Source: an uncultured delta proteobacterium
Lineage (GTDB): Bacteria > Desulfobacterota > Binatia > Binatales > Binataceae
Direction: 5' to 3'
DNA: 64,000 bases
Assembly: GCA_963842085.1 (NCBI GenBank)
Contig: CAWJET010000001.1
Span: 2,880,001 to 2,944,000, forward strand
Notes under the pieces: model-generated
Told to the model about the DNA's origin: nothing
The model's input: only the letters and a program-made list of their open reading frames with translations
Databases searched by the model: none
In this document: piece by piece, positions 3,181 through 51,345 of the stretch
Numbering within the stretch: the first letter of the stretch is position 1
How the letters are laid out: every line of letters starts with the position of its first letter
Translations under genes and position numbers: made by a program

Positions 3181-6100
3181 CTACTTGCTCAGCTCGTCGA
3201 GCAGGGCCTTGGCGTCTTTCAGGTCGGGGGTGTCGAAGCCCTCGGTAAACCAGTTGTAGATGTCGGCGAGCATCGCGCGCGCCTCGTCGCGCTTGCCTTG
3301 CTGGTCGAGTAATCGCACGAGGCTGGCAGTCGCGCGGAGTTCCCACGATTTCGCTTTCTGTCGGCGCGCAATTTCGATCGCGGTGCGGAAGGATTGCTCG
3401 GCTTGCGCGGCATTCGATGCGTCCTGCGCCAGAATCAGTTCGCCATTGAGCCGATGCACTTCGGCTTCATAATACCGTTGGCCGGTTCGCTCGATTAGTC
3501 GCACTGACTCGTCGATTGTGCGAAGACCCTCATCGAATCGCCCTATTCGGCCCAAGGCGGTCGCAATGAGGGCGAGATAATGGTCGCAAAAGATCTCGTA
3601 GCCGGCGGCCAGCGCTTTCGATGTATGGTCTCTGATCCGGGCGACGCCGCTCTCAAGGTTGCCGGCCATTGCATCTGCCCAACCAAGGTAAATTGTGGAG
3701 TGGGGATCGTACTCCCTCGACTCGGTCGATAGTTTCAACGCTGCTTCTGCCTGCTCTCTCATTTGCTCAAAGTCACGGCGAAATTCAAAAAACGTGGCGG
3801 CAAAGTTGTGTCCCACTTTCACGATCGTCTTGAACCCGGATTCGCGCGCGATCTCAGTCGCAATGCTTACTTGCTCCAGTGCCCGGTCCGGGTAGCCCAG
3901 GAACCACTGGTCCCATGCCGTTATGATTCCGGTGGTCACTTGATCATAGAGCAGCATCCAACTCTTGGCTTGAGGCAGCTTCGCGACGGAGTCCAGCAGC
4001 GCCATCGCCCGGCCCTGGTCTGGGGCGGCGAGCTCGAAATCGCCCGAGAGGATCCTCGCAAAGCCCGATGAGCCGATCGCATCCGCAATAAGCAGTGGAT
4101 TGCCGGATTCCTCGGCCACTGCAATCATCTCGGGTGCTATCTCGCACGCCTTGCGCACGTCTCCACGGACAATCCGCACTTGGTAGAATCCAGTGAGCGC
4201 CCCCCATCTCTTTTCCGAGTTGATTCCGGGCCGTCGGCAAAGCTCAACCGCGCGCATATACGACTGTTCCATTTCGAGTGAGGCCGCGCCCTCTATGGCA
4301 AACAATGCCTCGAAGGCTGCGTTCCTGAGGTCCAACTCCAGTTCGGCGCGTTGGTCGTCATCGGGGAGCTTCTGCAACTGTTCTAGTCCGGTCTCGAACT
4401 GCGCGAGCGCTTCGGCCCTGGCCCCGCGGACGGCGCACTGCTGAACCGTGCGCAGGCAGTAATGAACAGCCTTGCGGGGATTGCCGCTGCGCGCGTAGTG
4501 ATGCGCCAGCTCGGCGACGTGGTCGTCGAGGCTCTCGGCATAGATCGACTCCATCGCGGTGCCGATACGCTCGTGCAACTGCTTGCGCCGCTCCGTCAGC
4601 ACCGAGTTGTAGGCGACGTCATGGGTCAGCGCGTGCTTGAAGGTGTACTCGATGTCGCCGACTGCTGGTTGCTCGTAGATAAACTCGCCGAGCTGGAGTT
4701 GGGAGAGCATCGGCTCCAACTCCGGTCCGGGCTTCGCCGCCACTTTACGCACCAGCTCGAGTTTGAACTCTGTGCCGATGATAGCCAGCGTCTGGAGCAG
4801 GTCTTTGTGGTCGGACGCGAGCCGGTCGATGCGCGCGGCGAGAATCGCCTGCACCGTAGGCGGGATCTTGAGTTCGTTGAGAGCCTTGGTAAGCCTTACC
4901 GTTCCGTTGCGCTTAAGCGCCCCGTCGTCGAACAGCACCAGGACCGTCTCTTCCATGAAGAATGGATTGCCCTCCGTGCGCTCGATGATCAGGCGCTTGA
5001 GTGGCGCCAGATCCTTGCCGTCACCGAGCAGCGCGGTCAGCATCTCGCCAGCGCTCTCCTTGCCGAGCGGGTCGAGCCGCAACTGCGTGTAGTAAGTCTT
5101 GCTATTCCACTGATGCGAGTATTCGGGCCGATAGTTAACCAGCAGCAGAATCTTCGCGGTGCCGATTGAGTCGGCGAGCAGATTGAGCAATGCCTGGGTG
5201 CCCTCGTCGATCCAGTGGAGGTCCTCAAAGATAATCATCAGCGGCTGGTTAAGGCTCTCCCGCAAAATGATGCGTTTGATCGCGTCGAGCGTGCCGCGCC
5301 TGCGGGTTTGTGGGTCCATTTGCGCGAGCGGGTCCGGCGCGTCTGCGATTCCGAGCAGGCTATAGAGGTAGGGAATCGTGCCCTCGAGCTCGCGATCGAG
5401 AATCGCGATTCGGCCAGCAATTTTCTCGCGGCGGGTGCGCTGGTCATCCTGCGACGCAATCTTGAAGTAGCTGTGCAGCAGGTCAATCACCGGAAAGTAG
5501 GACGACGCCTTGCCGTGGGAGACCGAGAAGGCCTCGAGCACCATCCAGCCCGCAGCGCCGGTGGCCTTGAATTCGAACATCAGGCGCGACTTGCCGACCC
5601 CGGCCTCGGCCATTGCGGCCACGATCTGCCCGCGCCCGGCCTTGGCTTGCTCCGCCGCGGCCTTCATCGCAGGGTCAAGGGCGTCAGCGAGCCGGTCAAC
5701 GTTTATGAAGTGACGGGACTTGGTCCGCTGCGCACGCGCCTGCAAAGATCGGCGGGACGCGGGCTGACTAAGTTCGTCGGCCGCCAACGCGAGATGGACG
5801 CGGTCGGCGCGAGCGCCTGCATCCGCGAGGCCAGATTGGTGGTGTGCCCGATCGGCGTGTATTCAGTGTGTCCCTCGCCGGTTGCGATCGATCGAACGAC
5901 CACCTCGCCGGTGTTCACGCCGACCCGCACTTCGAGCGGCAAGTTGCCAGTCTCGCGCAATCGCGCCGAGTAGCGCTTCAGTTCATCTTGCATGCGCAGC
6001 GCCGCGTACAGTGCGCGCTGCGGATGGTCCTCGTGCGCGACCGGGGCGCCGAACAGGGCGAAGATGCCGTCGCCGGTCGATTGCACGATGTATCCGTCGT

Positions 6101-6488: not shown

Positions 6489-6579
6489 CGTTTTGCCTCT
6501 CTTTGATGGAGCGCGACCACTCTCTCCTTTATCATCGGGGTTCGCCAGCGACCAACAAGAGCCAGGCGAGGAGGCGCAC

Positions 6580-7614
6580 TCAGATGGAAGCGCGGAAGAT
6601 AGCGTCGGCGCCGGTGGATTTGAGCGCCGAGTCCACGAATTCACGATCGGCGGAGCTTAGAGCCTCGCGATCTTCGCGCAGCCATTGCAGACATTTGCCC
6701 TGGTAGGGGAAAGGCTGCTGCACCCACCCGCGGCCGTCGATCTCGCATCGCACTTCGCTTGCATGGCTCGCGAGCGCATGGGCGTTGGCGAGCAGAAAGG
6801 GAGCATAGACGCGGCCTACCTCGATCAGGAACGGGCGCAGCGTGACGACGGCATCCTCGCGCCGGAGCCATCCGGCGTCTTCGACTTCGAGCGACGAGAG
6901 GTCGTCGAGATGCGAGACCCAGGAGACGACGCGCGGATGCTCGGCGGCGGCAATTGCGGCGGGCGTGGGATCGAAATGGGCAAGCTGGCTCAACTGCCCG
7001 AAGAAGCCGAAGTCGCTCGCGCCCGGCCGCGCGCCCATGAGGAATCGATGCCCGGCGACCAGATGCGAATCAAGCAGGCCGAGGATGCGGCGGTAGCTGG
7101 CCTCGATGACGGGCGTCGTCACCTCGTTCGAGCCGACCACGCGCAGTCGTTCGATTTGACGATCGGCAATGTAGCTGGACATCTTCGCCAGCGTCTCGCG
7201 ACTCATGAGCGGATTGCGGTCGAGCGCGAGCACGTGCGAGGCCTTGTGGATGTCGGCCGCGTATTTCCATCGGTAGTGGAACATCGGCTTGGTGAGCCAT
7301 TCGTCAGCGTAGTCCTCGAGCAGTGCGTCGAGAAACGCGAGCGCGGGATCAGGCGGGACGATGGAACGCGCGGCGAACATCTTTTCGAGCCGCCTGATTT
7401 GAAACGTCGAGTCGATCATCGCGTCGTCGGTGCGCCCACCCTCGCCGGGGAAGACGAGCACGGGGATTAACGCGACAGGAACGTCAGGAATGCCGAGGTC
7501 CTCCGGCGAGCCGCGCATTATCCACGTGAATGTGATCCGCCGAAAGCGCAACACGGCGCGCATCTTGCGCGAGTAGGGCGAGCCGAATCCGCCGACCAGC
7601 TTCAATGGGGTCAT
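6580..7614 (-). CDS. Glutathione S-transferase family protein
   Basis: Start MTPLKLVGGFGSPYSRKMRAVL, IPVL, DST, DYADEWL, FLMGARPGASDFG; the upstream part of the 658-aa track ORF is a shadow of the sulfatase gene. Confidence 0.85.
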   Translation of the reverse strand: MTPLKLVGGFGSPYSRKMRAVLRFRRITFTWIMRGSPEDLGIPDVPVALIPVLVFPGEGGRTDDAMIDSTFQIRRLEKMFAARSIVPPDPALAFLDALLEDYADEWLTKPMFHYRWKYAADIHKASHVLALDRNPLMSRETLAKMSSYIADRQIERLRVVGSNEVTTPVIEASYRRILGLLDSHLVAGHRFLMGARPGASDFGFFGQLSQLAHFDPTPAAIAAAEHPRVVSWVSHLDDLSSLEVEDAGWLRREDAVVTLRPFLIEVGRVYAPFLLANAHALASHASEVRCEIDGRGWVQQPFPYQGKCLQWLREDREALSSADREFVDSALKSTGADAIFRASI

Positions 7615-39251: not shown

Positions 39252-40042
39252 CGGGCCGAATCCATTCCTCCGCGGTCATCGACCGGCGGGCCGAACTCGA
39301 CCCGAGCGTTGAAGTCGGCCCGGGCGCGGTGATCGGACCGGGGGTGAAGATTGGCGCGGGCACGGTGATCGGCCCGTGCGCGATGATCGAGCGCAACACC
39401 ACGATCGGCAAGCGCAATCGCATCTGGCAGTTCGCCGCCATCGGCGCGGAACCGCAGGACCTGAAATTCAAGGGCGAACCGTCGGTAGTCGAAATCGGCG
39501 ACGACAACATGATTCGCGAGTTCGCGACCATTCACCGCGGCACCGAAGGCGGCGGCATGCTCACGAAAATCGGCAGTCACGCGCTGGTGATGACCTACGC
39601 GCACGTCGCGCACGACTGCCTCATCGGCGACCATGTGATCCTGGCGGCGTCCACCGGGCTGGCGGGCCACTGCGTGATCGAAGAGTACGCGATTTGCGAG
39701 GGCCAGGTCGGGGTGCATCAGTTCACCCGCATCGGCACTCACGCGATCGTGGCGGCGGGCGCGAAGGTGGCGCAGGACGTGCCGCCGTACTCGATGGTGG
39801 CGGGGACCGAGCGCGCGCGGCTGGCTGGCGTCAACGAGATTGGCCTGCAGCGGCGCGGCTTCAAGCCGGAAACGATTGCGGCGCTGAAGTCGGCGATTCG
39901 TACGCTGTTTTTCTCGAAGCTGCTGCGCGAGGAAGCGATTGCCAAGACCCTCGAGGAATACGGCGAGCTGGCCGAGGTGCGCCGGCTGGTTGATTTCATA
40001 AACAACTCGAAGCGCGGAGTCGTTGGCCGCGAGCGTGAATAA
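39248..40042 (+). CDS. lpxA: Acyl-ACP--UDP-GlcNAc (or GlcNAc3N) acyltransferase LpxA, probable ATA start
   Basis: IH.SAVI hexapeptide repeats, PQDLKFKG, IREF.TIHRGT, HVAHDC, GVHQF.RIG, DVPPY; start placed at the ATA 8 nt after GAGGAG. Confidence 0.93.
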   Translation: MAGRIHSSAVIDRRAELDPSVEVGPGAVIGPGVKIGAGTVIGPCAMIERNTTIGKRNRIWQFAAIGAEPQDLKFKGEPSVVEIGDDNMIREFATIHRGTEGGGMLTKIGSHALVMTYAHVAHDCLIGDHVILAASTGLAGHCVIEEYAICEGQVGVHQFTRIGTHAIVAAGAKVAQDVPPYSMVAGTERARLAGVNEIGLQRRGFKPETIAALKSAIRTLFFSKLLREEAIAKTLEEYGELAEVRRLVDFINNSKRGVVGRERE

Positions 40043-40850
40043 GCTCGGGCTCATCGCGGGCAACGGCGTCTTTCCGCTCGAAGTAGCGCGCGCCGCGCGC
40101 GAGCGCGGAATAAAAATCGTCGCGGTCGCGCACCTGGATGAAAGCGAGCGCGCGCTCGACTCGGTGGCCGGCGAAGTCACGTGGATCAAAGTCGGCGAGT
40201 TGCAAAAAATAATCGACGTGTTCAAAACCGCCGGTGTGTCGGAAGCCGCGATGGCCGGCGGCATCGCGCGCGCGCGGCTGAAAGATTCCTTCGCACCCGA
40301 CGCGCGCGCGCTCAAGATGCTCGCGGGAATCGGGCGCTTCAGCGATGACGCCGTTCTGCGCGGCGTCGCGCGTGAAGTCGAGGCTGAAGGAATCAAAATG
40401 ATCGACCCGGTGCCGATGATCGAGCATTGGCTCGCGCGCCCCGGCGTCGGCGCGGGTCCCGAGCCGGCTCCCGCGCAAATGCGCGATCTCGATCTCGCAT
40501 TCGCGGTCGCGCGCCGGCTTGGCAGCTACGATATAGGCCAGACGGTCGCGGTCCGCGACGGAATGGTCGCCGCCGTGGAAGCGCTGGAAGGTACCGACGC
40601 CGCCGTGCGTCGCGCAGCCGCGCTGGTGGGCGCGGGCCTGGTGGTGGCCAAGGCGGCGAAGCCCGGGCAAGACATGCGGTTCGACCGCCCCGCAATTGGC
40701 CCGGCTACTGTGGAATTGCTGGCCGAGATTGGCGCGGCGATGATCGGCGTCGAAGCGGGAGTTGCGCTGATTCTCGAACGCGATCGCACGCTCGCGCTCG
40801 CGCGCGCGAAAAACGTGACGTTGTACGGTTATGCGCAAGCCGGCGTTTGA
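40035..40850 (+). CDS. lpxI: UDP-2,3-diacylglucosamine hydrolase LpxI
   Basis: LGLIAGNG.FP, DDA.L, DIGQTV, AVEA.EGTD, KP.QD.RFD.P.IG. Confidence 0.93.
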   Translation: MNKLGLIAGNGVFPLEVARAARERGIKIVAVAHLDESERALDSVAGEVTWIKVGELQKIIDVFKTAGVSEAAMAGGIARARLKDSFAPDARALKMLAGIGRFSDDAVLRGVAREVEAEGIKMIDPVPMIEHWLARPGVGAGPEPAPAQMRDLDLAFAVARRLGSYDIGQTVAVRDGMVAAVEALEGTDAAVRRAAALVGAGLVVAKAAKPGQDMRFDRPAIGPATVELLAEIGAAMIGVEAGVALILERDRTLALARAKNVTLYGYAQAGV

Positions 40851-41793
40851 GCTGCGCGCCGCGGTGATCGGCGCGGGGCGGCTGGGCACTCTGCACGCGC
40901 GCAAGTACGCCGCGATTGCGGGAATCAAGCTCGCGCACGTCGTCGATCTCGACGCCGCGCGGGCGCAGGCCCTGGCGGCGGAAGTTGGCGCGGCGCCGCT
41001 GGCCGATTACCGGATGCTCGCGGGAAAGGTGGACCTGGTGACGGTCGCGTCGCCCGGTGTGACGCATCATGAGATCGCGTCGGCGATGCTGAAAGCGGGC
41101 ATCGACGTGCTGCTGGAAAAGCCGATGGCCGAGACGCTGGCGCAGGCACGTGAGCTGGCCGGGCTGGCGTCGGAATCCGGGCGCATTCTTCAGATCGGTC
41201 ACCTCGAGCGGTTCAATCCGGCGGTCGTTCATCTGCATTCAATCGTAAAAAATCCGCGGTTCGTGGAATGCCATCGGCTCGCGCCGTTCACCGAGCGCGG
41301 CACCGATGTGGACGTGGTGCTCGATCTGATGGTGCATGACCTGGACGTGATCCTGTCGGTGGCGCCGTCGGAAGTGGCGTCGCTGGAGGCGGTGGGCGTC
41401 GCGATCCTGACCGATCGAATCGATCTGGCCAACGCGCGCATCCGCTTCCAGAGCGGTCTCATCGCAAATCTCGTCTCCAGCCGCGTGTCGGCGCGGCGCG
41501 AGCGCAAGATTCGCTTCTTCCAGCCCGATGCGTACATTTCAGTCGATTACGAAGCGCGCAGCATCCAGATATTTCGCCGGACACCGCCGGTGCGAGGCGC
41601 GCAGTTTCCCACAATTTCGGCCGAGCAGATCGATTTCGGCGAAGGCGATCCTCTCGCCGACGAAGTCAATGCGTTCGTCGGCGCCGTTCGCAACCGGTCC
41701 ACGCCGGCGGTCAGCGCCGACGACGGACTTCGGGTGATGGAACTGACCGAGAGAATCAAGGACGTGATGCTGACGGACTCGGTCGCGTCTTGA
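40831..41793 (+). CDS. Gfo/Idh/MocA oxidoreductase, probable GnnA (UDP-GlcNAc 3-dehydrogenase)
   Basis: GAGRLG..HA, EKP, GHLERFNPA, DVDVVLDLM.HD; the position after lpxA-lpxI matches gnnA. Confidence 0.85.
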   Translation: MRKPAFELRAAVIGAGRLGTLHARKYAAIAGIKLAHVVDLDAARAQALAAEVGAAPLADYRMLAGKVDLVTVASPGVTHHEIASAMLKAGIDVLLEKPMAETLAQARELAGLASESGRILQIGHLERFNPAVVHLHSIVKNPRFVECHRLAPFTERGTDVDVVLDLMVHDLDVILSVAPSEVASLEAVGVAILTDRIDLANARIRFQSGLIANLVSSRVSARRERKIRFFQPDAYISVDYEARSIQIFRRTPPVRGAQFPTISAEQIDFGEGDPLADEVNAFVGAVRNRSTPAVSADDGLRVMELTERIKDVMLTDSVAS

Positions 41794-41826
41794 CGCCTGT
41801 AGTCCGCTGCGACAGAATCGAACGCA

Positions 41827-42282
41827 ATGAGTCCGGGCAGGATCAGAATGCTCAAAATTCTCGGCGGACTCGTGCTGGGCGCGGGCGCCGCGTTTCTCAT
41901 CTTCACCGCTGCCGCGGACTGCACGCCGGTGACCGGCAGCGACGCCGTGGCCGTCAACGTGTCCGCGCTGCGCCCCGGCGGCGCGCGGCTTTTCTGTTAC
42001 AGAGATGACGCCGGCAGGCGGCTCCGCTTCGTGCTCGCGCGCGGCCACGATGGCAAAGTGCGCTCGGTGTTCGACGCATGCCGCCAGTGCTTCGCGTACC
42101 ATCGCGGCTACCGGATAGCTGGCGGCGAACTGATTTGCCGGGTGTGCGGAAATCACTACCCGATCGATCGAATGACTGAAGGCAAAGCGTCGTGCGTGCC
42201 CGTCAGCCTTGCGCACGAGGAAGATTCAGGGATCGTGCATATCAAAACGGCGGATCTCAAAGCGGGCCGCGCGTTGTTCTGA
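41827..42282 (+). CDS. DUF2318 / FtrD-like membrane-anchored Cys-rich (Fe-S or metal-binding) protein
   Basis: N-terminal TM; FDACRQC..RGY..G.ELICRVCG..Y...SCVP. Confidence 0.75.
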   Translation: MSPGRIRMLKILGGLVLGAGAAFLIFTAAADCTPVTGSDAVAVNVSALRPGGARLFCYRDDAGRRLRFVLARGHDGKVRSVFDACRQCFAYHRGYRIAGGELICRVCGNHYPIDRMTEGKASCVPVSLAHEEDSGIVHIKTADLKAGRALF

Positions 42283-42305
42283 CTATCCGGAGTAGCCGTA
42301 GCAAG

Positions 42306-42923
42306 ATGACGGTTGATATTCGCACCATCAGACACTACCGCCGCGTGCTGGTGATATTCAGTCTCGCAGCGCTTCTTACTCTATCGGCCTGCGGCAATCG
42401 CGAAGCGAGAGGTGACTATCCGGCGGCTAACGGGAACAATTGCCTGCCGGACGTGAGCCTGATCGATCAGCACGGGAGCACGGTCTCGCTCGAGTCGTTA
42501 AAGGGCAAGCCGGTGCTGATCGATTTCATTTACACCTCGTGCGCTTCGACCTGCCCGCTGCTCACGGCAAAGATGGCGGCGATCGCACACGTGCTTGGTC
42601 CCGCGCTGGGAGCCGACGTCAGGATCGTCTCGATCACGCTCGATCCCGAGCACGACAGCCCCGCGGCGCTGGCAACGTACGCTCAGAGCCACGACGCAAA
42701 TGCGAGCGGCTGGCTCTTTTTGACCGGGCCGCCCGCCAAAATCGACCAGGTCCTGGCGTTGTTCAAGCTGCGCCGGACGCGTGAGAGCGATGGATCGATC
42801 ATGCATTCCATATCCGCCTTCCTGCTCGGTCCCGACGGCCATCAGATTCGGCAGTACAACGCGCTCGATGTGAGCCCCGACGCGGTAGTCGCGGACGTTG
42901 ATCGCGCGCGCAGCAAAGGCTAA
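42306..42923 (+). CDS. SCO/SenC family copper-binding lipoprotein 1
   Basis: Lipobox LSAC; L.DQ.G, FIYTSCASTCP (CxxxC), SITLDPEHD, WLFLTG, conserved His in SIMHS. Confidence 0.9.
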   Translation: MTVDIRTIRHYRRVLVIFSLAALLTLSACGNREARGDYPAANGNNCLPDVSLIDQHGSTVSLESLKGKPVLIDFIYTSCASTCPLLTAKMAAIAHVLGPALGADVRIVSITLDPEHDSPAALATYAQSHDANASGWLFLTGPPAKIDQVLALFKLRRTRESDGSIMHSISAFLLGPDGHQIRQYNALDVSPDAVVADVDRARSKG

Positions 42924-42948
42924 GAGCGAAGTGTCGGAATAAACCGCG

Positions 42949-43269
42949 ATGGCAACCTCACTGACGATCGATCGCGCTTCGATGCGGCAGTTCGCCGCTG
43001 CGATGGCGTTGGTCATGATAATGGCGAGCCTGCCGTCGATCGGCGTGATCGTCATTTCCGATCGTTCCGGGCCGAACATCTCGCTCGACATCTGCCATCC
43101 GCTGCAGTCGCTGGACAGCTCGCCCGGCATCGCGCAGATCGCACGTCCGGCGCAGCCTGAAATTGGAGCGAAGATTGTTTCGCACGAATTGGTTGCTCAA
43201 TTCGTTCCGATTCTGAAGCATAGATTCGCCGAAGCACCCGATCCGCCTCCGCCCAAGCTGTTCTGCTAA
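42949..43269 (+). CDS. Putative leader/arrest peptide (CutF/CruR/DUF2946-like architecture)
   Basis: 106 aa; hydrophobic N-terminal segment, central DICHP, C-terminal APDPPPPKLFC; sits directly upstream of the beta-barrel gene. Confidence 0.6.
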   Translation: MATSLTIDRASMRQFAAAMALVMIMASLPSIGVIVISDRSGPNISLDICHPLQSLDSSPGIAQIARPAQPEIGAKIVSHELVAQFVPILKHRFAEAPDPPPPKLFC

Positions 43270-43392
43270 ACAGGGCGGTTTCAGCTTTTCGCTTATCGTT
43301 AATGGACGATTGCTCGTGGGCCTTGATGGTTCGCGCGCCGAAGGTGCGGCTCCGGTGGGCCGGGATGGATGCTTATGCGGAGGAATCTTATG
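43240..43392 (+). promoter_or_regulatory. Putative anti-SD/SD pairing controlling translation of the beta-barrel gene
   Basis: gat-ccg-cctccgc-cc-aagc (43240-43258) is complementary to gctt-at-gcggagg-a-atc (43371-43387), which contains the GGAGG SD of ATG 43390. Confidence 0.55.
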
Positions 43393-44370
43393 TCACGGCG
43401 TCAGGCTTTCTCTAAGACAGCCAGACGCGTGTTGGTAGCGGCGATTTTCGCGATCGGGCTAACGCCGAGCCTCGTCTGGGCCTGCGCCTGCGGGTGTGGT
43501 GTTTTCGAGGTAGGAACCGCATCACTGTTTCCTCAGGGGTCCGGAGGCCAGGTGTGGCTGCAATATGAGTACATGGATCAGTCCATAAACTTCCACGCGA
43601 CCCAGCCAGCTTCCGCCTTCTACAACAACGACAAGTACATCCGGACAGACTTCATCGAAGCGGGCGTACAGTACATGTTCAATCGGGACTGGGGCGTGAT
43701 GCTCGAGGTGCCCTATTGGGTGCGCGATTACAAGGGTGCTTATGACGGCAACAACAGCGACATCCATTGGTACCAGAACAACTCCATCGGCGATGTCCGG
43801 ATCCAGGCGATGTACACGGGTCTGTCGGAGGACATGTCGACCGGGCTCCTGATGGGGGTCAAGCCCCCGAGCGGCCAGTGGACCTATCCACCTTACGATC
43901 GGGACACGCAGATTGGCACGGGAAGCACCGACCTTCTGATGGGGGCTTACCACCTCGGAACATTCCCGACCAAGTTGGGAACGTTGCCGTTGACCCTCAT
44001 GGAGCGGCCCTTCAACTACTTCGTGCAGGTCAACTACGACTTGCCGCTCTGGGAACAGGACCAGTACACGCCCGGCAGGGAAGTCGATGGTGCGGTGGGA
44101 GCCTACTACGACTTCGGCAAAGTCGGTCTTCTCAGCGAGCTCGCTCCGATGCTCACCTTTCTCGCCTCTGACCGCACGCGGGATACAGGAAATAACGCAA
44201 ATCCCGCGAACAGCGGCTACACCCGTCTTATCGTTGCTCCGGGAGGCGAGATCAAACTCGGGATCATCCGGGCTTACGCAGACATAGAGGTCCCAATTTT
44301 TCAAAACATGAGGGGCTATCAGATCACCGCGCCCTTCGCGACCAAGCTGATTTTGAGTTACAGCTTCTGA
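43390..44370 (+). CDS. Putative outer-membrane beta-barrel with N-terminal CACGC metal-binding motif
   Basis: Signal peptide ending VWA, mature N-terminus CACGCG; alternating aromatic strands; IGDVRI, IGTGSTD similar to MetA-pathway/transporter barrels; C-terminal LSYSF beta-signal. Confidence 0.7.
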   Translation: MSRRQAFSKTARRVLVAAIFAIGLTPSLVWACACGCGVFEVGTASLFPQGSGGQVWLQYEYMDQSINFHATQPASAFYNNDKYIRTDFIEAGVQYMFNRDWGVMLEVPYWVRDYKGAYDGNNSDIHWYQNNSIGDVRIQAMYTGLSEDMSTGLLMGVKPPSGQWTYPPYDRDTQIGTGSTDLLMGAYHLGTFPTKLGTLPLTLMERPFNYFVQVNYDLPLWEQDQYTPGREVDGAVGAYYDFGKVGLLSELAPMLTFLASDRTRDTGNNANPANSGYTRLIVAPGGEIKLGIIRAYADIEVPIFQNMRGYQITAPFATKLILSYSF

Positions 44371-44387
44371 AGCGAGGAAAAGCAACC

Positions 44388-44948
44388 GTGAGGCGAACGA
44401 CATGGTGGTCTGCCGGAGCGGGAGTTGCCGCGCTCATCTGTGCGGCTACGTTAGCGTTCGCCTACGCGACTGTCGGTCAAACAGCACCGGCGCTGATCGT
44501 GCCGGAACTGGCTGGTGGCACGTTCGATCTTGCCGCCGAGCGTGGCAAGGTTGTGATCGTGAATTTTTGGGCCACCTGGTGTCCGCCCTGTCGCGAGGAG
44601 ATGCCGGCTCTCGACGCTTTCTACCGGCGCTATCATGGCCAGGGGCTCGAGATGATCGGCGTGAGCGCTGATCGCCCGCACGATCGATCCGATGTGATCA
44701 AGGTCATGCAATCGTTCAGTTATCCGGCGGCGATACTTGGAGATGCCCAAACCAATGGATTCGGCGATCCCGCCGAGTTGCCCGAGACCTTTGTTGTGGA
44801 CCGCTCAGGAGTTGTGCGCGATTGGTTTACGCCCGATAAAACAGCGGTCACGGAGAAGAGTCTTTCGGACGCGGTGCTCCCGCTGCTTTCACCAAGTTCC
44901 GCGGCGCAGGCATCAGCGAATCCCCGCGGACCTAACGCCAAGCCTTGA
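44388..44948 (+). CDS. TlpA-family thiol:disulfide oxidoreductase
   Basis: GKVVIVNFWATWCPPCREEMP, LPETFVVDRSG; signal peptide. Confidence 0.93.
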   Translation: MRRTTWWSAGAGVAALICAATLAFAYATVGQTAPALIVPELAGGTFDLAAERGKVVIVNFWATWCPPCREEMPALDAFYRRYHGQGLEMIGVSADRPHDRSDVIKVMQSFSYPAAILGDAQTNGFGDPAELPETFVVDRSGVVRDWFTPDKTAVTEKSLSDAVLPLLSPSSAAQASANPRGPNAKP

Positions 44949-44969
44949 CCCCATCAGGAGCAATCCTCG

Positions 44970-45374
44970 TTGCAATCGCGTCAAACGAACAAGCTCGCGT
45001 TAGTCGCAATCATCCTGCTGGCTGGATGCGCTTCTACGAACCCCCGGACGGGCGATCCGAATCCGAGGCTCGCGCAGTTGGAAAAAAAGAGACAGGCTCT
45101 CAACGAGAGCGAGAAACAGTGCGTCGACGAAACACTGAACCGGTGCCGCGATGAAACGGAGCGCATACTTGCAACTCCAGACGCTTCCGTTGAATCGCGA
45201 ATACAGCAGGAAGCCGACGAGCGCGATCGGGAACTCTCGGAATGCCGTGCCACAGCGGACGAGGAAAACGCGGAAATCGCTGAGCGAGAGCGCAACGAAT
45301 ATGAACTCGAGGCGCAGCAAGAGCGTGATCGCGCCTCGCTGATGGCGATTCTAACAGCCTCCCGGATGCACTGA
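44970..45374 (+). CDS. Hypothetical helical lipoprotein
   Basis: AGGAG upstream of TTG; lipobox LLAGC; charged coiled coil with three further Cys. Confidence 0.65.
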   Translation: MQSRQTNKLALVAIILLAGCASTNPRTGDPNPRLAQLEKKRQALNESEKQCVDETLNRCRDETERILATPDASVESRIQQEADERDRELSECRATADEENAEIAERERNEYELEAQQERDRASLMAILTASRMH

Positions 45375-45379
45375 AGTTT

Positions 45380-46057
45380 ATGCATGGAAGCACGATGCAT
45401 TCTGCGCGAACCATTTCCTCGATCACGAAGAGTTTATTTCTGACGATGGTGGTGGTCTTCACGGGAGTGCTGTCGCTGACTGGTTGCCGCCGGCCGGCTG
45501 CAAATGTCGGCGAGCGCGGAGGATCCGCGGTGCGCGACGCCTCCGACTGCTTGCCCGATATCACCTTGGTCGATCAGTACGGCCGGAAAGTTTCCCTGGC
45601 CTCGCTGAAGGGCAAACCGGTGCTGTTCGATTTCATCTACACCACCTGTCCAGGACCGTGTCTGCTCCTCACGGCGCGGATGAAAAAGATCGCCGATCGA
45701 CTCGGGCCCAAGCTCGGAACGGACGCCCGCATCGTCTCGATCACGGTCGATCCCGAACACGATCACCCCGAGCAGCTTCGCGCATATGCCAGTGCGCAGG
45801 GCGCCGACCTTAACGGCTGGCTGTTTTTAACTGGGACGCCCAAACAAATCGACGCTGTGATGGCGCGATTCAAGTTGTTCCGCCATCGCGAAGCCGATGG
45901 AGGAGTCGATCATTTTCTCCTGTTCTGTCTGGTTGACGCGAACGGCCGTGCATTGGTCCAGTACCTGGGCGAAGATGCCCAACCGGAGCGCGTCGCGAGC
46001 GACATCGAGCGGGCCGCAGCGCACAAGCCGATGGCGGCTGGCGACGGCGCGACCTAG
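45380..46057 (+). CDS. SCO/SenC family copper-binding lipoprotein 2
   Basis: Lipobox LTGC; FIYTTCPGPCL, SITVDPEHD, WLFLTG, His in GVDHF. Confidence 0.9.
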   Translation: MHGSTMHSARTISSITKSLFLTMVVVFTGVLSLTGCRRPAANVGERGGSAVRDASDCLPDITLVDQYGRKVSLASLKGKPVLFDFIYTTCPGPCLLLTARMKKIADRLGPKLGTDARIVSITVDPEHDHPEQLRAYASAQGADLNGWLFLTGTPKQIDAVMARFKLFRHREADGGVDHFLLFCLVDANGRALVQYLGEDAQPERVASDIERAAAHKPMAAGDGAT

Positions 46058-46118
46058 CCTTTTTGGAAGTGAGCAGGTGAAATCGCTAACGGACAAACAA
46101 TTGGTAAGAGATAGATAT

Positions 46119-46715
46119 ATGAGTACTCATCGAAATCTCAGATCGCTCGTCATCGTGGTAGCGATGACGTCGAGCCTGTTCGCGGCTGCTGGATGCAATC
46201 GCAACACCGAGGGCAGCGTGGGCGCCACCAACGTTCTCACCGATACCAAGCTCGTCGATCAGTATGGCGACACCGTCTCGCTGACGTCGCTAAAGGGCAA
46301 GCCGCTGGTGGTGGATTTTATCTACACGTCGTGTCCGGGGTCGTGCCTGATGGAGACGGCGAAGTTGGCGAATGTCGCGCTGCGGCTGGGCAACGATCTT
46401 GGCTCGAAAGTGACGATCGTTTCGATCAGCGTCGATCCCGAGCATGACGGTCCCAAACAGTTGCTCGACTACTCGCGCCAGCAGGGGGCGGACGAAAAGG
46501 GGTGGTATTTTCTGACCGGCGGTCCCGCGGACGTCGATCGAGCGCTGGCGGGCTTCAAGCTCAGCCGGCAAATCATGCCCGATGGTTCGGTCGGCCACCT
46601 GGTCGATATGATGCTGGTAGGACCGGATGGCCGGTTGGTGCGCGAATACAACGGCGAAATTGTCAAGGCGCAGGACATCGTCGACGACGTCAAAAAAACC
46701 CTGAGCAAGGGTTGA
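46119..46715 (+). CDS. SCO/SenC family copper-binding lipoprotein 3
   Basis: Start MSTHRNL; lipobox AAGC; FIYTSCPGSCL, SISVDPEHD, WYFLTG, His in SVGHL. Confidence 0.9.
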   Translation: MSTHRNLRSLVIVVAMTSSLFAAAGCNRNTEGSVGATNVLTDTKLVDQYGDTVSLTSLKGKPLVVDFIYTSCPGSCLMETAKLANVALRLGNDLGSKVTIVSISVDPEHDGPKQLLDYSRQQGADEKGWYFLTGGPADVDRALAGFKLSRQIMPDGSVGHLVDMMLVGPDGRLVREYNGEIVKAQDIVDDVKKTLSKG

Positions 46716-46723
46716 GGTGCCGC

Positions 46724-47188
46724 ATGAGACGAGCAATTGTTTTCGGCTCCTCGTTTGCGGCGATTCTGGCGCTGGCCTATCTGTGGCCAACGTTCGGCGC
46801 CTCATCATCGGAGAACGGCGGTGCGCGCGGAGCAATGTGCATAGCCGGTCATTGCTGCTGCACGAGACTGGCGGAGGCAGAGACCGTCGCCGCCAACGGG
46901 GCGCAGGGGCGTTTGACGCTCGATCCGAACCAGTTCGTTGGTCCGGCCAAGCAAGCCTATCAAGTTGCGGAGAAAGATCCGGCGCTGCTGGCGCGGCTGC
47001 ATTGCTATTGCGGATGTGACAGGCTGTACGGCCATCAGAATCTGCTCGATTGTTATCGAGGCGAGCACGGCTCGAAATGCGAAATCTGCATCGGCGAGGC
47101 GTTGTTGGCGGAGCGGATGTCGGAGCAGGGCTCGCCGGTCGATCAGATACGCGACGCTATCCGCAGGAATTTCGCGCCTGACAATTGA
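46724..47188 (+). CDS. PCYCGC-motif family protein
   Basis: Start MRRAIVF; HCYCGC...GH.NLLDCY...HG..CEIC..EA; extra CIAGHCCC near the N-terminus. Confidence 0.8.
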   Translation: MRRAIVFGSSFAAILALAYLWPTFGASSSENGGARGAMCIAGHCCCTRLAEAETVAANGAQGRLTLDPNQFVGPAKQAYQVAEKDPALLARLHCYCGCDRLYGHQNLLDCYRGEHGSKCEICIGEALLAERMSEQGSPVDQIRDAIRRNFAPDN

Positions 47189-47325
47189 ACGCGCCGCGAA
47201 GGTCCCTGGACTCAAAACCGGGCTCGAACCTCGCGTTTGCAGACCGCGTGGCCTTGGCGCTACTCTGAATCCGGCTTCAAAACGGAATTTCCCGCCTAAT
47301 TTCGTGCCATTGCGGACCTAGCTAT

Positions 47326-48216
47326 ATGGCGTCAGACCGCCTCATGAGGTTGCCCGAGTTCATCGGGCTCGGCCCTCCCCGCACGGGTACAACCTGGCTG
47401 CATCGCATGCTCGAGGGCCACGTCGATCTGCCCTACGGAGTCAAGGAAACGCAGTTTTTCACCACCTTCTACTCGAAGGGAATCGATTGGTACGCTCACC
47501 ATTTCCGCTACGCGACCGGTGACCGCAAGGTGGCGGAGATTTGTCCGTACTTCGACGCGAAGAAGGCACCTGCGCGCATTCATCGCCATCTTCCGGACTG
47601 CAAATTCCTCGTGACGCTCCGCAATCCCGTCGATCATGCTTACTCGACTTACAAAATGCTGCTTCGCGGCGCGTTCGTGCGTGGAACGTTCGACGAGGTG
47701 CTCAACACGCGCCCCCACATCGACGACAGCAACCGTTACGCGAAGCATCTGACGACATGGTTTGACTATTTCGGCCGCGAGCGTTTTCTGGTCATGCGTT
47801 ATGAAGAGCTGCGCGACGATCCCCAAGGCTATCTGGACCGGGTGTGCGACTTTATTGGGACGGCGCGAATCCAGATTCCCGATCACGTCCGCGGGCAACG
47901 GCGGGTTAATTTGATCGAGCGCGCCCCGAAGAGCCGCAAGCTCGCCCAGAATGCGCGGCATCTCCGCTATTGGCTCAAAAGGCGTCATGCCTACGGCGTG
48001 ATGAGAGCGCTCGGAAGCACCGGCATCTGGGAATTCTGCAACGGCCGCGGCGAAATATTCCCGACCCTTTCGCCCGAGCAAAACGCGATCTTGACCGAGC
48101 GCTATCTACCCGAGGTCGAGGCGCTCGAGGAGCTGCTCAAGATCGATTTTTCGGAATGGAAAAAGTCCGACGCTGTGCCGCGCCAAGCGGCGGCGATCGG
48201 TGCCAGGCAGGGCTGA
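47326..48216 (+). CDS. PAPS-dependent sulfotransferase
   Basis: 5'-PSB loop FIGLGPPRTGTTWL, KETQFF, 3'-PB LRNPVD.AYS, RYEEL..DP...L..VCDF.G. Confidence 0.9.
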   Translation: MASDRLMRLPEFIGLGPPRTGTTWLHRMLEGHVDLPYGVKETQFFTTFYSKGIDWYAHHFRYATGDRKVAEICPYFDAKKAPARIHRHLPDCKFLVTLRNPVDHAYSTYKMLLRGAFVRGTFDEVLNTRPHIDDSNRYAKHLTTWFDYFGRERFLVMRYEELRDDPQGYLDRVCDFIGTARIQIPDHVRGQRRVNLIERAPKSRKLAQNARHLRYWLKRRHAYGVMRALGSTGIWEFCNGRGEIFPTLSPEQNAILTERYLPEVEALEELLKIDFSEWKKSDAVPRQAAAIGARQG

Positions 48217-48217
48217 C

Positions 48218-48286
48218 ATGGATGCGACGGCACTAAAGTTGGTGGATTTCAGGACCGGTACCACTTGGCTGACCAATCGTCGCTGA
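48218..48286 (+). pseudogene. 22-codon remnant of a second sulfotransferase N-terminus
   Basis: MDATALKLVDF------RTGTTWLTNRR* vs neighbour MASDRLMRLPEFIGLGPPRTGTTWLHR. Confidence 0.6.
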
Positions 48287-48352
48287 TATACCGGTTGAAT
48301 CGGGCCAGCGAGGCCATTTGCGGCGCCATGTTTTTCAATCACAATCCCTTCA

Positions 48353-49555
48353 ATGCCGTTGAATGCCGAAGCGCCGCCGCCGCTCGATGAACGCCTGAAA
48401 GAGACCGCGCACAAGTGCCGCGTCATGATCGTTGCCGGCGAGGCGTCGGGCGATCTTCATGGCGGCGATCTGGCGCGGGAGATTCTCGCGCGCGACCCGT
48501 CGTGCGAACTGTTCGGAATCGCGGGCGAGAAAATGCGCGCGGCCGGGGTGCGCGCGATCGTCAGGACCGAGGACATTCACGGGCTCGGACTTTCGGAGCT
48601 GGCCTCGACGATCGGGCGCACGATTGGCGCGTTTCGCGCGCTGCGCCGAATCATCCGGCGCGAGCAGCCGGACCTCGTGCTCCTGATCGACTACGCGGAG
48701 TTCAATCTGATACTTTCCGGCACGGCCCGGCGCAACGGAGTGCCGGTGCTCTACTACATCACGCCGCAAGTGTGGGCGTGGCGGCGCGGCCGAATCGACA
48801 AGCTGGTCGAGCGCGCGGATCGGCTGGCGGTGGTGCTGCCGTTCGAGGCCGAACTGTTCCATCGCGCAGGCGAGCGCGTTTCGTTCGTGGGGCATCCGCT
48901 GCTCGATCGGATCGCCACGATCCAGAACCGGGACGAGACGCTGAAGCGTCATGGCTTCCCGCCCCGCGCGCGAATCATCTCGATCCTGCCAGGCAGCCGG
49001 CGCGCCGAAGTTCGCTACCTGCTGGATCCGATGGTCAAGGCGGCGCGGATTATCGCGCGCGATCATGGCCTTGAAATAGCGCTCGCGCTGGCGCCGACGC
49101 TGACACCGGCTGAACTTGTCGAGGTGGGACGCGCGGACCTGGCGGGAATCAGGATTGTCGAGAACGACACATACAACATAGTCGCGTCGAGCGAGCTCGC
49201 GCTGGTCGCGTCGGGCACTGCCACGCTGGAGACGGCGCTGCTCGGATGCCCCGAAGTCATCGCCTACAAAGTGTCGCCGCTTACCTATATTCTAGGGCGG
49301 ATGCTCGTGACGGGGGTGGATTTTATAGGGATGCCGAACATTCTTGCGGGCCGGCAAATTGCGCCGGAACTGATCCAGGGCGACGTGACCGTCGAGAAGT
49401 TGGTGCGAGCTGCCGAGCCGCTGTTAAGCGAGACAATCCACACCGACACGGTCGCCGCGCTGAAGGCATTGCGCGAGAAGCTCGGCTCACCGGGCGCGGC
49501 GGGACGAGTCGCGACGCTCGCGCTCGAGATGATCGCGTCCAGGTCGAAGGCATGA
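48353..49555 (+). CDS. lpxB: Lipid-A-disaccharide synthase
   Basis: AGEASGDLHG, IDY.EFN, YI.PQVWAWR, LPFE, FVGHPL, LPGSR, SGTATLE. Confidence 0.96.
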   Translation: MPLNAEAPPPLDERLKETAHKCRVMIVAGEASGDLHGGDLAREILARDPSCELFGIAGEKMRAAGVRAIVRTEDIHGLGLSELASTIGRTIGAFRALRRIIRREQPDLVLLIDYAEFNLILSGTARRNGVPVLYYITPQVWAWRRGRIDKLVERADRLAVVLPFEAELFHRAGERVSFVGHPLLDRIATIQNRDETLKRHGFPPRARIISILPGSRRAEVRYLLDPMVKAARIIARDHGLEIALALAPTLTPAELVEVGRADLAGIRIVENDTYNIVASSELALVASGTATLETALLGCPEVIAYKVSPLTYILGRMLVTGVDFIGMPNILAGRQIAPELIQGDVTVEKLVRAAEPLLSETIHTDTVAALKALREKLGSPGAAGRVATLALEMIASRSKA

Positions 49556-51345
49556 AGCTGCTTACCCCAATGGAATGGCGGCTGTACGGCTACCTCCGCC
49601 GATACATGTTCCCGTTCGTGTTGTTGCTGGGTGTGGCAATGGCCCTGCTGTCGGCGGCCAGCGCTGGAATCCCGCTCATCATCAAGATGGTGGTCGATAT
49701 GGTCACCAATCTCAAAATCGCTCATCAGCTCGACGCGCACGGCGCCCTGGAGCTGCGTAAATACTCGCTGATGCTCGCCGGATTATTTTTGCTCCGCGCG
49801 CTCGCCAATTTTTCCGACGACTATTTGAGCGCGTACATATCGCAGAAGCTGGTGATGGACATCCGCGGCGATCTCAACGAGAGCCTGCAACGCCAATCGT
49901 TGAGTTTCTTCAACCGCACGCCGACCGGCGTGATGGTTTCGCGAATCATCAGCGACGTCGGCATGGTGGTCTCCAGCCTGACCGGCGGCGTGTTTTCGAT
50001 TTTCGGCGACGGCATGTCGCTGATCGCGTTGCTGGTGACGGCCTTCTACCTCGATTGGCAGCTCGCCATCATCGCCTTCATCGGTTTTCCGATCGTCGTT
50101 CTGCCGATCGCAGGTCTTTCGAAGAAAGTCCGTCGCGAGACCAAGAACCAGCAAAAGCAGTTGAGCGGCTTGCAGTCGCTGCTGGTCGAAACCTTCCAGG
50201 GCAACCGCGTCGTGAAGGCGTTCGGGATGGAAGATTACGAGCGCGCCCGCTTCAATCGCGAGCTCAAGCGGCTGTTTAGGATTTTCATGCGGGTGGCGCG
50301 GATCAAGGCGTTTACCGGGCCGCTGATCGAGGCGCTGGGCGCGATTGCGGTCGTCGTGGTGGTCTGGTGGGCGGTGGGCTCGCTGCAAGCGGGCACGCGC
50401 ACACTGGGTCAATTCGCCGGATTCTTTACCACCATGATTCTCGTTTACCGTCCATTCAAGGCGCTCGGCAAAACCAACAACACAATCCAGCAAGGGCTTG
50501 CCGCGGCCGAACGGGTCTTCGAGATGATGGATCAGCCGAGCGAGGTTCCCGACGACCCCGACGGAATCGAGCTGCATCCCGGCCCGCACAGCGTCGCCTT
50601 CGAGCACGTCAGTTTCCGCTACGGCGACGAGTGGGTGCTGCACGACATCAACCTGGAGATTGGCGCGGGCAAGGTCGTGGCGCTGGTCGGGATGAGCGGC
50701 GGCGGCAAGTCCACGATGGCAGATTTGATTCCGCGTTTTTATGACGTGCAGCAAGGACGCGTCACGGTCGATGGAATCGACGTGCGCCGGCTGCGGCTCA
50801 AGTCGCTGCGCGCGGAAATCGGCCTGGTCACTCAGACTACCTTTCTGTTCGACGACACGATTCGCGCCAATATCGCGTACGGCAGCAGCGACAAACATCT
50901 CGAGCGCGTAGTCGCGGCCGCCAAGCTCGCCAACGCTCACGACTTTATCTCGCGGCTGCCCAACGGCTACGACACGATGGTGGGCGAACTCGGCGTGCGC
51001 ATCTCGGGCGGCGAGCGCCAGCGAATCGCGATCGCGCGGGCGCTGCTCAAGGACGCGCCGATTCTGATCCTGGACGAGGCCACCTCGTCACTGGACTCCG
51101 CCGCCGAGCGCTCGGTGCAGGAAGCGCTTGATCACCTGATGGCCAACCGCACCACGCTGGTGATAGCGCATCGGCTGTCCACCGTGCGCCGCGCCGACCG
51201 GATCGTGGTAGTCGTTCACGGCCGTATCGTCGAGGATGGTACGCACGACGAATTGTTTGCGCGCGGGCAGGAGTACCGAAAGCTCTACGACCTGCAATTC
51301 ATGTCGCCCGAAGATCTGGCCGGCAACGGCGGTCTCATCAACTGA
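49552..51345 (+). CDS. msbA: Lipid A flippase ABC transporter MsbA
   Basis: ATGA overlap with lpxB; TM domain followed by NBD ([33 protein letters not shown]). Confidence 0.9.

Follow-up and report, generated by a model that had tools for sequence, protein, structure and literature searches.

In a 64,000-nucleotide (nt) stretch of DNA from an uncultured delta proteobacterium of the Binataceae (GenBank assembly GCA_963842085.1, contig CAWJET010000001.1, forward-strand positions 2,880,001 to 2,944,000; here called the window), a putative outer-membrane barrel gene is preceded by an open reading frame (ORF) of 106 codons, termed the leader, at 42949-43269. This ORF is a real gene, and its product is probably a cis-acting, exported, metal- or thiol-sensing arrest peptide, similar in kind to CutF and CruR, by which the expression of the barrel is set. 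The sensor-ruler-brake part of this reading rests on strong comparative evidence from aligned sequences; around it we infer the export, the ligand, the sense in which the system responds and the RNA output. A preliminary description of this DNA had recorded a hydrophobic N-terminus, a DICHP motif and a C-terminal PDPPPPK in an ORF of 106 amino acids (aa), all of which were found in place. It had also taken the ORF for a divergent analogue of CutF and CruR in which the proline codons themselves mask the ribosome-binding site (RBS) of the barrel gene; the family-wide anatomy and the copper context agree with the first of these proposals, and the mechanism through the proline codons is not supported.

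Anatomy of the leader and its family

The anatomy was deduced from an alignment of 110 diverse members, whose identity to the window protein is 17-78%. Four columns alone are invariant, C49, P100, P101 and P102, and P97 and P51 are retained in 95% and 90% of the members, respectively. The cysteine is embedded in a conserved motif, T-L-D-I-C-H-P-L-Q, and is followed by His in 69% of the sequences and otherwise by Q, E, R, S, T or W; no second conserved Cys occurs in the alignment. Conservation of the Cys-His and PPP motifs, which the preliminary description had named as a check, and its suggestion that C-H replaces CxxC, are thus borne out for the single invariant Cys, usually part of C-H-P, and for PPP, and weakened by a His present in 69% only.

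The linker between Cys and PPP consists of 48-52 residues in 110/110 members and of 49-50 in 96 of them, and its sequence is hypervariable. The frequency of the most common residue is 0.28 in the linker, 0.53 around the Cys and 0.83 in PDPPPPK, and the linker contains 15% Ala, 12% Pro, 10% Leu and 9% Ser. Both motifs are carried by 132 of the 150 representatives listed from a profile search, the other 18 being mostly truncated or frame-broken, and exactly three residues follow PPPx in 109 of these 132. The window leader terminates in A-P-D-P-P-P-P-K-L-F-C and the stop codon, with PPPP at residues 99-102. At the other end an uncharged run with a median length of 23 residues is preceded by Arg. 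An A-R-P triplet at residues 65-67 is internal and conserved in part of the family only.

The AlphaFold2 model built on the 110-sequence alignment had a mean predicted local distance difference test (pLDDT) score of 75.9 and a predicted template modelling (pTM) score of 0.37. A helix was predicted for residues 9-27 (pLDDT 86-96) and short strands for residues 34-37 and 41-44, residues 45-106 were devoid of secondary structure, and the linker was modelled as coil with pLDDT 63-73. Alignment and model together indicate a layout of putative anchor, one-Cys motif, ruler and polyproline tract three residues from the end, and not a globular domain.

The same features bear on whether the leader might instead be a stand-alone membrane-anchored periplasmic protein that could act with SCO, TlpA or the barrels in a copper or thiol relay, and in which the polyproline would serve as an interaction or spacer element and no arrest would occur. 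Such a protein could account for the 71-100% identity of the whole sequence within the genus (among the 120 homologues listed), for the conserved surroundings of the Cys, for the position of the gene among copper chaperones and for pLDDT values that are moderate (63-83), not very low. It would not account for a family in which one Cys and PPP alone are invariant and the linker is hypervariable yet fixed in length, nor for the constant three-residue tail. The low pTM with no globular fold predicted, a gene that always stands directly upstream of a same-strand gene of one of four unrelated types, and a downstream RBS that is predicted to be unusually sequestered also speak against it, and we consider a stand-alone function unlikely.

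The leader is widespread within one family of bacteria. In a word-indexed search 283 proteins with lengths of 58-186 aa matched at E<=0.01; the 120 homologues listed fall in the identity range given above and nearly all have 106 aa. A full HMMER search with a profile of 19 leader sequences gave 155 clusters (50% identity) at E<=0.001; among the 150 matches listed every length lay within 65-158 aa, with no long fused forms. When whole genomes were searched with the profile, the family was found in 148/165 Binataceae genomes at one to five copies each, in 91/96 high-quality Binataceae genomes and in 28/30 genera. In an even draw of the phylum the profile matched only the three genomes of the Binataceae and none of the 248 others searched. 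The source records of the homologues bear the titles Candidatus Binatus, Binataceae or 'delta proteobacterium' metagenome-assembled genomes. These tallies take in genomes flagged as unpublished (G023, G018, G416, G423, G422, G421 and G360), of which G023 and G018 provide loci L002 and L018 as rows in alignments A1 and A2, L002 also appearing in A4 and A5. The related loci (n=59) were chosen by a single peptide pattern, so that they are biased toward close relatives. No publication on the Binataceae leader family was found; the lists in PMC9973294 File S1 and PMC9426467 Table S1 could include relatives.

A few copies are split between frames or contain an internal TGA (G058:C11:268546-268864, G060:C1:256736-257030 and the second copy of L036), and may be decayed copies or assembly errors. 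The leader ATG of the window lies 25 nt past the stop of an SCO gene and has no sequence resembling a Shine-Dalgarno (SD) element (gtcggaataaaccgcgATG, region 42924-42951); in many relatives the gap is smaller and AGAGG-like motifs are present. Translation of the leader may depend on the upstream SCO gene.

Comparison with CutF, CruR and other arrest peptides

The gene of CruR (Bp2923 of Bordetella pertussis; DUF2946) is likewise a small upstream ORF that heads a copper operon and is followed by an outer-membrane transporter gene, and its product is exported, as that of the leader probably is. In the DUF2946/CruR family CXXC and RAPP are 45 residues apart, conserved within 1-2 residues, compared with 49-50 between Cys and PPP in the Binataceae leader; five additional residues impair copper control, RAPP stands three residues from the end, as does the motif of the Binataceae leader, and >95% of the DUF2946 members have an export signal (PMC9426467). 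The recurrence of the ruler (~50 residues, three to the stop) in CruR points to a physical constraint, that of ribosome tunnel and translocon, common to independent families. CruR differs in having CXXC and RAPP where the Binataceae leader has a single Cys, mostly in C-H-P, and PDxPPPK, and in an intergenic region (IGR) of 162 nt with Rho termination instead of ~100 nt with two hairpins. Its regulation is independent of elongation factor P (EF-P), whereas the PPP tract of the leader is expected to depend on it, and its downstream gene encodes a TonB-dependent transporter and not a small barrel.

CutF (Rhodobacter capsulatus; DUF2946) resembles the Binataceae locus in the structured IGR before a copper gene and in the proposed link between a stall at PPP and access to the RBS. 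Its C terminus is P109-EPEGPPPRL-118, and an EF-P-dependent stall at PPP is reported to open a stem-loop shielding the RBS of cutO (10.1101/2025.02.05.636593). The mature protein of 90 residues contains C41xxxC45 (PMC9973294), from which numbering we calculate a Cys-PPP spacing of 41-45 residues. CutF differs in its CxxxC with two further Cys and in a downstream multicopper oxidase gene. In CutF a single intergenic stem-loop contains the anti-SD and shields the SD, whereas the Binataceae hairpins stop just short of the SD and the RBS is predicted to pair with the 3' coding part of the leader.

Of the hallmarks of DUF2946, the fixed distance between Cys and proline motif and a proline arrest motif within a few residues of the C terminus are both found in the leader family. 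The operational filter for CutF-like proteins selects ORFs of <150 aa with PP in the last 15 residues, an N-terminal signal and a same-strand metal-context gene <1000 nt downstream (PMC9973294), and the window leader corresponds to it with 106 aa, PPPP at 99-102, a putative N-terminal signal, an IGR of 105 nt and SCO/CopC/CopD/TlpA-like neighbours.

Small RAPP/RGPP proteins have been described from many phyla upstream of genes for TonB receptors, YcnI, PCuAC and thioredoxins (EMBO J 2025, PMC12992588), and share with the leader a conserved Cys or His, a C-terminal proline arrest motif and an N-terminal transmembrane (TM) segment, which in the leader is putative. R-A/G-P-P is absent near the C terminus of the leader, and the family consensus has no Arg in front of the prolines. 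SecM, VemP and MifM are also exported nascent chains in which C-terminal arrest exposes the next RBS (10.1101/2025.02.05.636593); they differ in that they monitor the export machinery through long specific arrest sequences, compared with a plain polyproline in a copper context.

The barrel start and its RNA environment

In all aligned junctions ATG-CG(G/A)-(A/C/G)GG, encoding M-R-R, is present at the position of window 43375, and this start is preceded, at a distance of 5-8 nt, by an SD-like GGUGGA, GAUGGA or GGGAGA; in the window the SD-like sequence is GGGAUGGA at 43362-43369. The 16S rRNA 3' end, ...GGAUCACCUCCUUUCU, makes canonical SD pairing available. In alignment A6 the window ATG 43375 falls on the start of the type A barrel genes that follow leaders of a second subfamily (subfamily 2; the window leader belongs to subfamily 1). 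Since the conserved start is ATG 43375, GGAGG at 43379-43383 represents codons 2-3 of the barrel (CGG AGG), and its description as the SD of ATG 43390 is doubtful. In-frame alternatives in the window are ATG 43369 and ATG 43390. An in-frame equivalent of the latter occurs in 7/28 aligned subfamily-1 junctions, four type A junctions carry AAA, ATT or ATA in its place, and GGAGG is absent from subfamily 2 (A6). ATG 43390, with GGAGG 6 nt upstream, is a possible second start in the window. A chimeric barrel N-terminus with an ancestral start at 43390 was also considered and was dropped on the evidence of A6.

According to the preliminary description, the proline codons at 43246-43252 are the anti-SD of the GGAGG serving ATG 43390, and a pause at PPPP switches the barrel on. 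An interrupted helix of 14 base pairs (bp) can indeed form, made up of 3+7+4 bp between 43240-43258 and 43371-43387. ATG 43390 has GGAGG 6 nt before it, and CACCUCCU is the end of the 16S rRNA; in 16/29 subfamily-1 loci (6/29 of the rest) the RBS finds its best local partner in the proline tract, and masking the footprint of a ribosome stalled at PPP lowers the predicted opening energy of the window RBS from 16.2 to 12.5 kcal/mol. The comparative data do not follow this model. Over 28 junctions 78.8% of the cells in the helix are paired, compared with 78.2 +/- 0.5% when the 3' letters are permuted among the sequences (91/500 shuffles reach the observed value), with double changes in only three cells. 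Of the 28 relatives, 13 retain the central U-A pair. Its U is the third base of the Pro100 codon, the freest synonymous site in the tract, which among 30 sequences is CCT in 17, CCC in 6, CCG in 6 and CCA in 1 without compensating change; the codons of Pro99, Pro101 and Pro102 are almost fixed. To this are added the start at 43390 with few equivalents, against a start at 43375 conserved everywhere, and the lack of GGAGG in subfamily 2.

The thermodynamic controls gave the same result. The region 43200-43420 folds with z = -0.76, and 44/200 shuffles fold equally well; in its minimum-free-energy (MFE) structure the RBS is paired with 43218-43240 and not with the proline codons. A duplex as stable as that of the last 48 nt of the leader ORF with the RBS (-31.2 kcal/mol) is reached by 4.8% of 5307 other window 48-mers and, among those matched for C, by 12.9% of 1478. 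With 12.2% of 196 other SD-bearing RBSs in this genome the proline tract forms a pairing at least as good. Some complementarity of a polyproline tract to an M-R-R start is to be expected, because CCN codons read as Arg codons or G-rich SDs when reverse-complemented. The pairing of proline codons and RBS is therefore not beyond chance, and the anti-SD model in its exact form is very unlikely. Two other helices were counted and discarded: the MFE helix (43218-43240 with the RBS) is 68.5% paired against 67.5% in shuffles, and a helix of AUCCGCC with the true SD is 79.4% paired against 78.7%, in both cases without covariation.

The barrel start region is nevertheless predicted to be unusually closed. 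The opening energy of its RBS (-14 to +6), 16.2 kcal/mol, compares with 9.5 +/- 3.1 kcal/mol for 110 SD-bearing control starts from this genome that were folded in an equivalent 265-nt context, one of which reaches 16.2. In 58 related loci the mean is 12.9 kcal/mol. Masking the PPP-stalled footprint reduces this family mean to 11.6; masking the last 75 nt of the leader gives 13.4 kcal/mol for the window and 11.6 for the family, and masking the last 120 nt gives 10.0 and 10.2. In subfamily 1 the proline tract pairs with the RBS at about -12 kcal/mol, against a background of about -7. A paused ribosome freeing the RBS by way of the proline codons, as first proposed, is not borne out, since the mean drop in opening energy caused by the stalled footprint in the 58 loci is only 1.3 kcal/mol. 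The models suggest instead that the start region is sequestered diffusely by the C-rich 3' third of the leader, the proline codons not being singled out; such predicted sequestration is consistent with a control exerted by ribosomes on the leader.

The length of the IGR is 91-122 nt in 44/46 measured loci (full range 91-188 nt), and the junction alignment of subfamily 1 (ORF tail, IGR and start) has a mean column identity of 66%. An Rfam scan of 42800-43600 gave no match, and RNAalifold on MAFFT alignments found almost no consensus structure for subfamily 1 (-0.79 kcal/mol). Two hairpins (Table 1) nonetheless occurred at the same places in each subfamily-1 sequence folded, even in divergent members with other hairpin sequences. 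A covariance model built from 22 junctions, R1, recovered 27 subfamily-1 junctions at E<1e-5, of which 5 were outside the seed and one stands before SCO; at this threshold it recovered none in subfamily 2 or in other genera, and in the window's own genome its single match is 43303-43377. Three weaker matches (E 0.13-0.43) were found in L017, L091 and L103. In the model-fitted alignment 85.3% of the hairpin cells are paired, against 82.7 +/- 0.8% in shuffles (0/500 reach it), with 16 double-change cells (1/500 shuffles reach), counts that come from related sequences in an alignment fitted to the structure itself. The fold z-scores of 20 IGRs range from -3.3 to +1.0.

The element recognised by R1 also lies between a leader and an SCO gene at L005:1400-1469 (-), with 28.3 bits. 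The 20-25 nt past the leader stop (window 43270-43300, columns 61-85 of alignment A2) are strongly conserved in subfamily 1, with the consensus CAGGGCACUUUCACAUUUUCG; this segment is pyrimidine-rich and mostly unpaired, and pairs with the SD in some folds of the IGR alone.

The output of the same sensor and stall could alternatively be transcriptional, the paused ribosome blocking Rho loading or another route of termination or decay in the IGR. CruR is reported to act in this way (PMC9426467); the conserved pyrimidine-rich segment is largely unpaired in most folds, and the mask of the stalled footprint affects the predicted RBS opening only slightly. The Binataceae IGR is, on the other hand, short (~100 nt, against 162 nt in CruR) and consists mostly of GC-rich hairpins, and a terminator scan detected no intrinsic terminator in it. 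A transcriptional output is rather improbable on this balance.

Gene context, proposed mechanism and significance

The coordinates of the features discussed are collected in Table 1.

Table 1. Features of the leader locus and of the neighbouring genes (window coordinates)
Feature	Position	Strand	Basis or remark
Leader gene	42949..43269	+	106 codons and stop; ORF listing and homologue searches
Putative hydrophobic signal-anchor or TM segment, residues 16-37	42994..43059	+	R9 and R13 before it
DICHP, candidate sensor motif, residues 47-51	43087..43101	+	110-member alignment
Hypervariable linker of conserved length ('ruler')	43102..43236	+	110-member alignment, AlphaFold
PDPPPPK, candidate EF-P-dependent stall site, residues 97-103	43237..43257	+	110-member alignment
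5' arm of the helix proposed earlier	43240..43258	+	pairing verified; without covariation support
Conserved 105-nt IGR	43270..43374	+	length and junction alignment
Hairpin 1	43312..43338	+	per-sequence folds, covariance model R1
Hairpin 2	43347..43362	+	per-sequence folds, model R1; ends directly 5' of SD-like GGGAUGGA
3' arm of the helix proposed earlier	43371..43387	+	contains ATG 43375 and, with GGAGG, codons 2-4 of the barrel
Putative outer-membrane barrel 'type A', 331 aa	43375..44370	+	start conserved across both leader subfamilies
FtrD-like gene	41827-42282	+	Pfam match; upstream of leader
SCO1/SenC gene	42306-42923	+	Pfam match; upstream of leader
TlpA-like thioredoxin gene	44388-44948	+	downstream of barrel
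Lipoprotein gene	44970-45374	+	downstream of TlpA-like gene
Two SCO genes	45380-46057 and 46113-46715	+	downstream of lipoprotein gene
PCYCGC/CYCXC gene	46727-47188	+	downstream of SCO genes

The genes from the barrel through the TlpA-like and lipoprotein genes to SCO are separated by gaps of 5-21 nt, and the pair of FtrD-like and SCO genes stands upstream of the leader in relatives as well. The next gene on the same strand, in contrast, varies: among 70 leader copies it encodes barrel A in 44, an unrelated barrel B in 20, a YHS-like protein in 3 and SCO in 2, one case being unclear. In 96 plus-strand ORFs from 19 loci barrel B (example L006:1917-2822) is followed by CopC, CopD and SCO, and barrel A by TlpA-like, SCO and PCYCGC proteins. 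Similarity of the leaders does not follow the barrel type; the L002 leader, for example, is 78% identical to that of the window but stands before type B, and the L020 leader is 39% identical but stands before a type A barrel sharing 86% identity with the window barrel. The occurrence of leader and IGR before different genes gives the pair the appearance of a cis-regulatory cassette.

Neither the leader nor barrels A and B had a match in Pfam, NCBIfam or PDB sequence searches; barrel A had no Pfam match at E<=0.1, also none to Phenol_MetA_deg (PF13557), a family of outer-membrane barrels. Its nearest ESM Atlas clusters (score 0.97-0.99) contain PF13557 in 15-56% of their members, which is a lead only. 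The predicted signal peptide of barrel A ends ...WA|CACGCGVFEV and that of barrel B ...A|HGVVGDYxFLEPL. The predicted mature N-termini look like metal sites, type A starting with CACGCG and type B with His (HGVVGDY).

In several genomes two or three leader modules lie only a few kb apart, and typically barrel B goes with a subfamily-1 leader and barrel A with one of subfamily 2 (L041:2514-2831 and 5228-5539; L051:2548-2865 and 6528-6839; L048; L036). The window genome has a single module in which a subfamily-1 leader is combined with barrel A, and the combinations across genomes suggest shuffling of cassettes. In relatives lipid A genes flank the inserted copper island, which runs from FtrD-like to PCYCGC or CopCD, with LpxI and a GFO/IDH/MocA oxidoreductase upstream and LpxB downstream; the window ORFs at 40023-41793 and 48353-49555 are candidate counterparts of these flanking genes (window ~40000-49600). 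The PCYCGC protein of the window matches the NCBIfam 'CYCXC family (seleno)protein' at 1.8e-32; it has Cys there and no in-frame TGA.

In the mechanism favoured here for the leader as an exported arrest peptide, the N-terminal signal-anchor would bring the nascent chain to SecYEG and the ribosome would slow down at D-P-P-P-P-K. PPP and DPP are established EF-P-dependent stall motifs, and the genome encodes EF-P. During the stall Cys49, with His50, would be ~50 residues from the peptidyl-transferase centre and would just have emerged on the periplasmic side, as the invariant ruler suggests; in CruR the corresponding spacing of 45 residues has been reported to matter. By analogy, binding of Cu(I) to the Cys motif, or its thiol state, would lengthen or shorten the pause. 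Paused and queued ribosomes would then keep the 3' part of the leader single-stranded, and since this part is the main in-silico partner sequestering the barrel RBS, initiation at ATG 43375 would rise; this is the weakest step. Because the downstream genes look like copper acquisition or delivery (barrel with CopC/CopD, or SCO with TlpA), we lean very slightly toward a CruR-like logic in which the system is on when copper is scarce. It is tempting to go further and regard the stall-site codons together with the C-rich 3' end of the leader as the anti-RBS strand, so that sensor, brake and RNA switch would overlap in one element moved before at least four unrelated copper genes, but this we hold to be quite unlikely.

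The divergent-analogue reading is supported by a putative export-type N-terminus, an invariant Cys, a ruler of ~50 residues and PPP three residues from the end, and by a copper gene context that stays constant while the downstream gene varies. Several observations weigh against it. The Pfam profile DUF2946 (PF11162), proposed earlier as a search, matches 0/110 leader members at E<=1, and CXXC or CxxxC is replaced by the single invariant Cys with a His that is not universal. The fixed length and moderate pLDDT (63-83) are also compatible with a small extended functional protein. On the RNA side, covariation was absent in all three long-range helices counted, both hairpins exclude the SD, the IGR of the window itself folds no better than shuffles (z = +0.72), and the effect of the PPP footprint is inconsistent, ranging from about -8 to +7 kcal/mol per locus. 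Low synonymous variation in the last 13 leader codons (rank 1 of 94 windows) was rejected as an RNA signal, as windows over the TM segment and the sensor motif are nearly equal and it is thus not specific. The sequences of the family are related, so that counts across them are not independent, and the support consists of sequence comparison and prediction. As to DUF2946 itself, its profile also matched 0/19 leader sequences at E<=10, no DUF2946 protein was found in the window's own genome, and only three marginal matches (25-27 bits, inside longer frames) occurred across 251 genomes of the phylum. The nearest named neighbours of the leader in the ESM Atlas are 'DUF2946 domain-containing' (DUF6769, CzcI) at 0.91-0.92 with few shared features, which again is a lead only.

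Taken as a whole, the leader is likely to represent a new family of the CutF/CruR type, the RNA switch being a predicted part of it only. If this is true, metal sensing by an exported nascent chain would extend beyond DUF2946 to a family from an uncultured soil phylum with no detectable sequence relation to it, in which one Cys takes the place of a Cys pair and a plain EF-P-dependent polyproline serves as the brake. Two uncharacterised families of outer-membrane barrels would at the same time be marked as copper-regulated, and both, with predicted mature N-termini that are Cys-rich or begin with His, are candidate copper channels.

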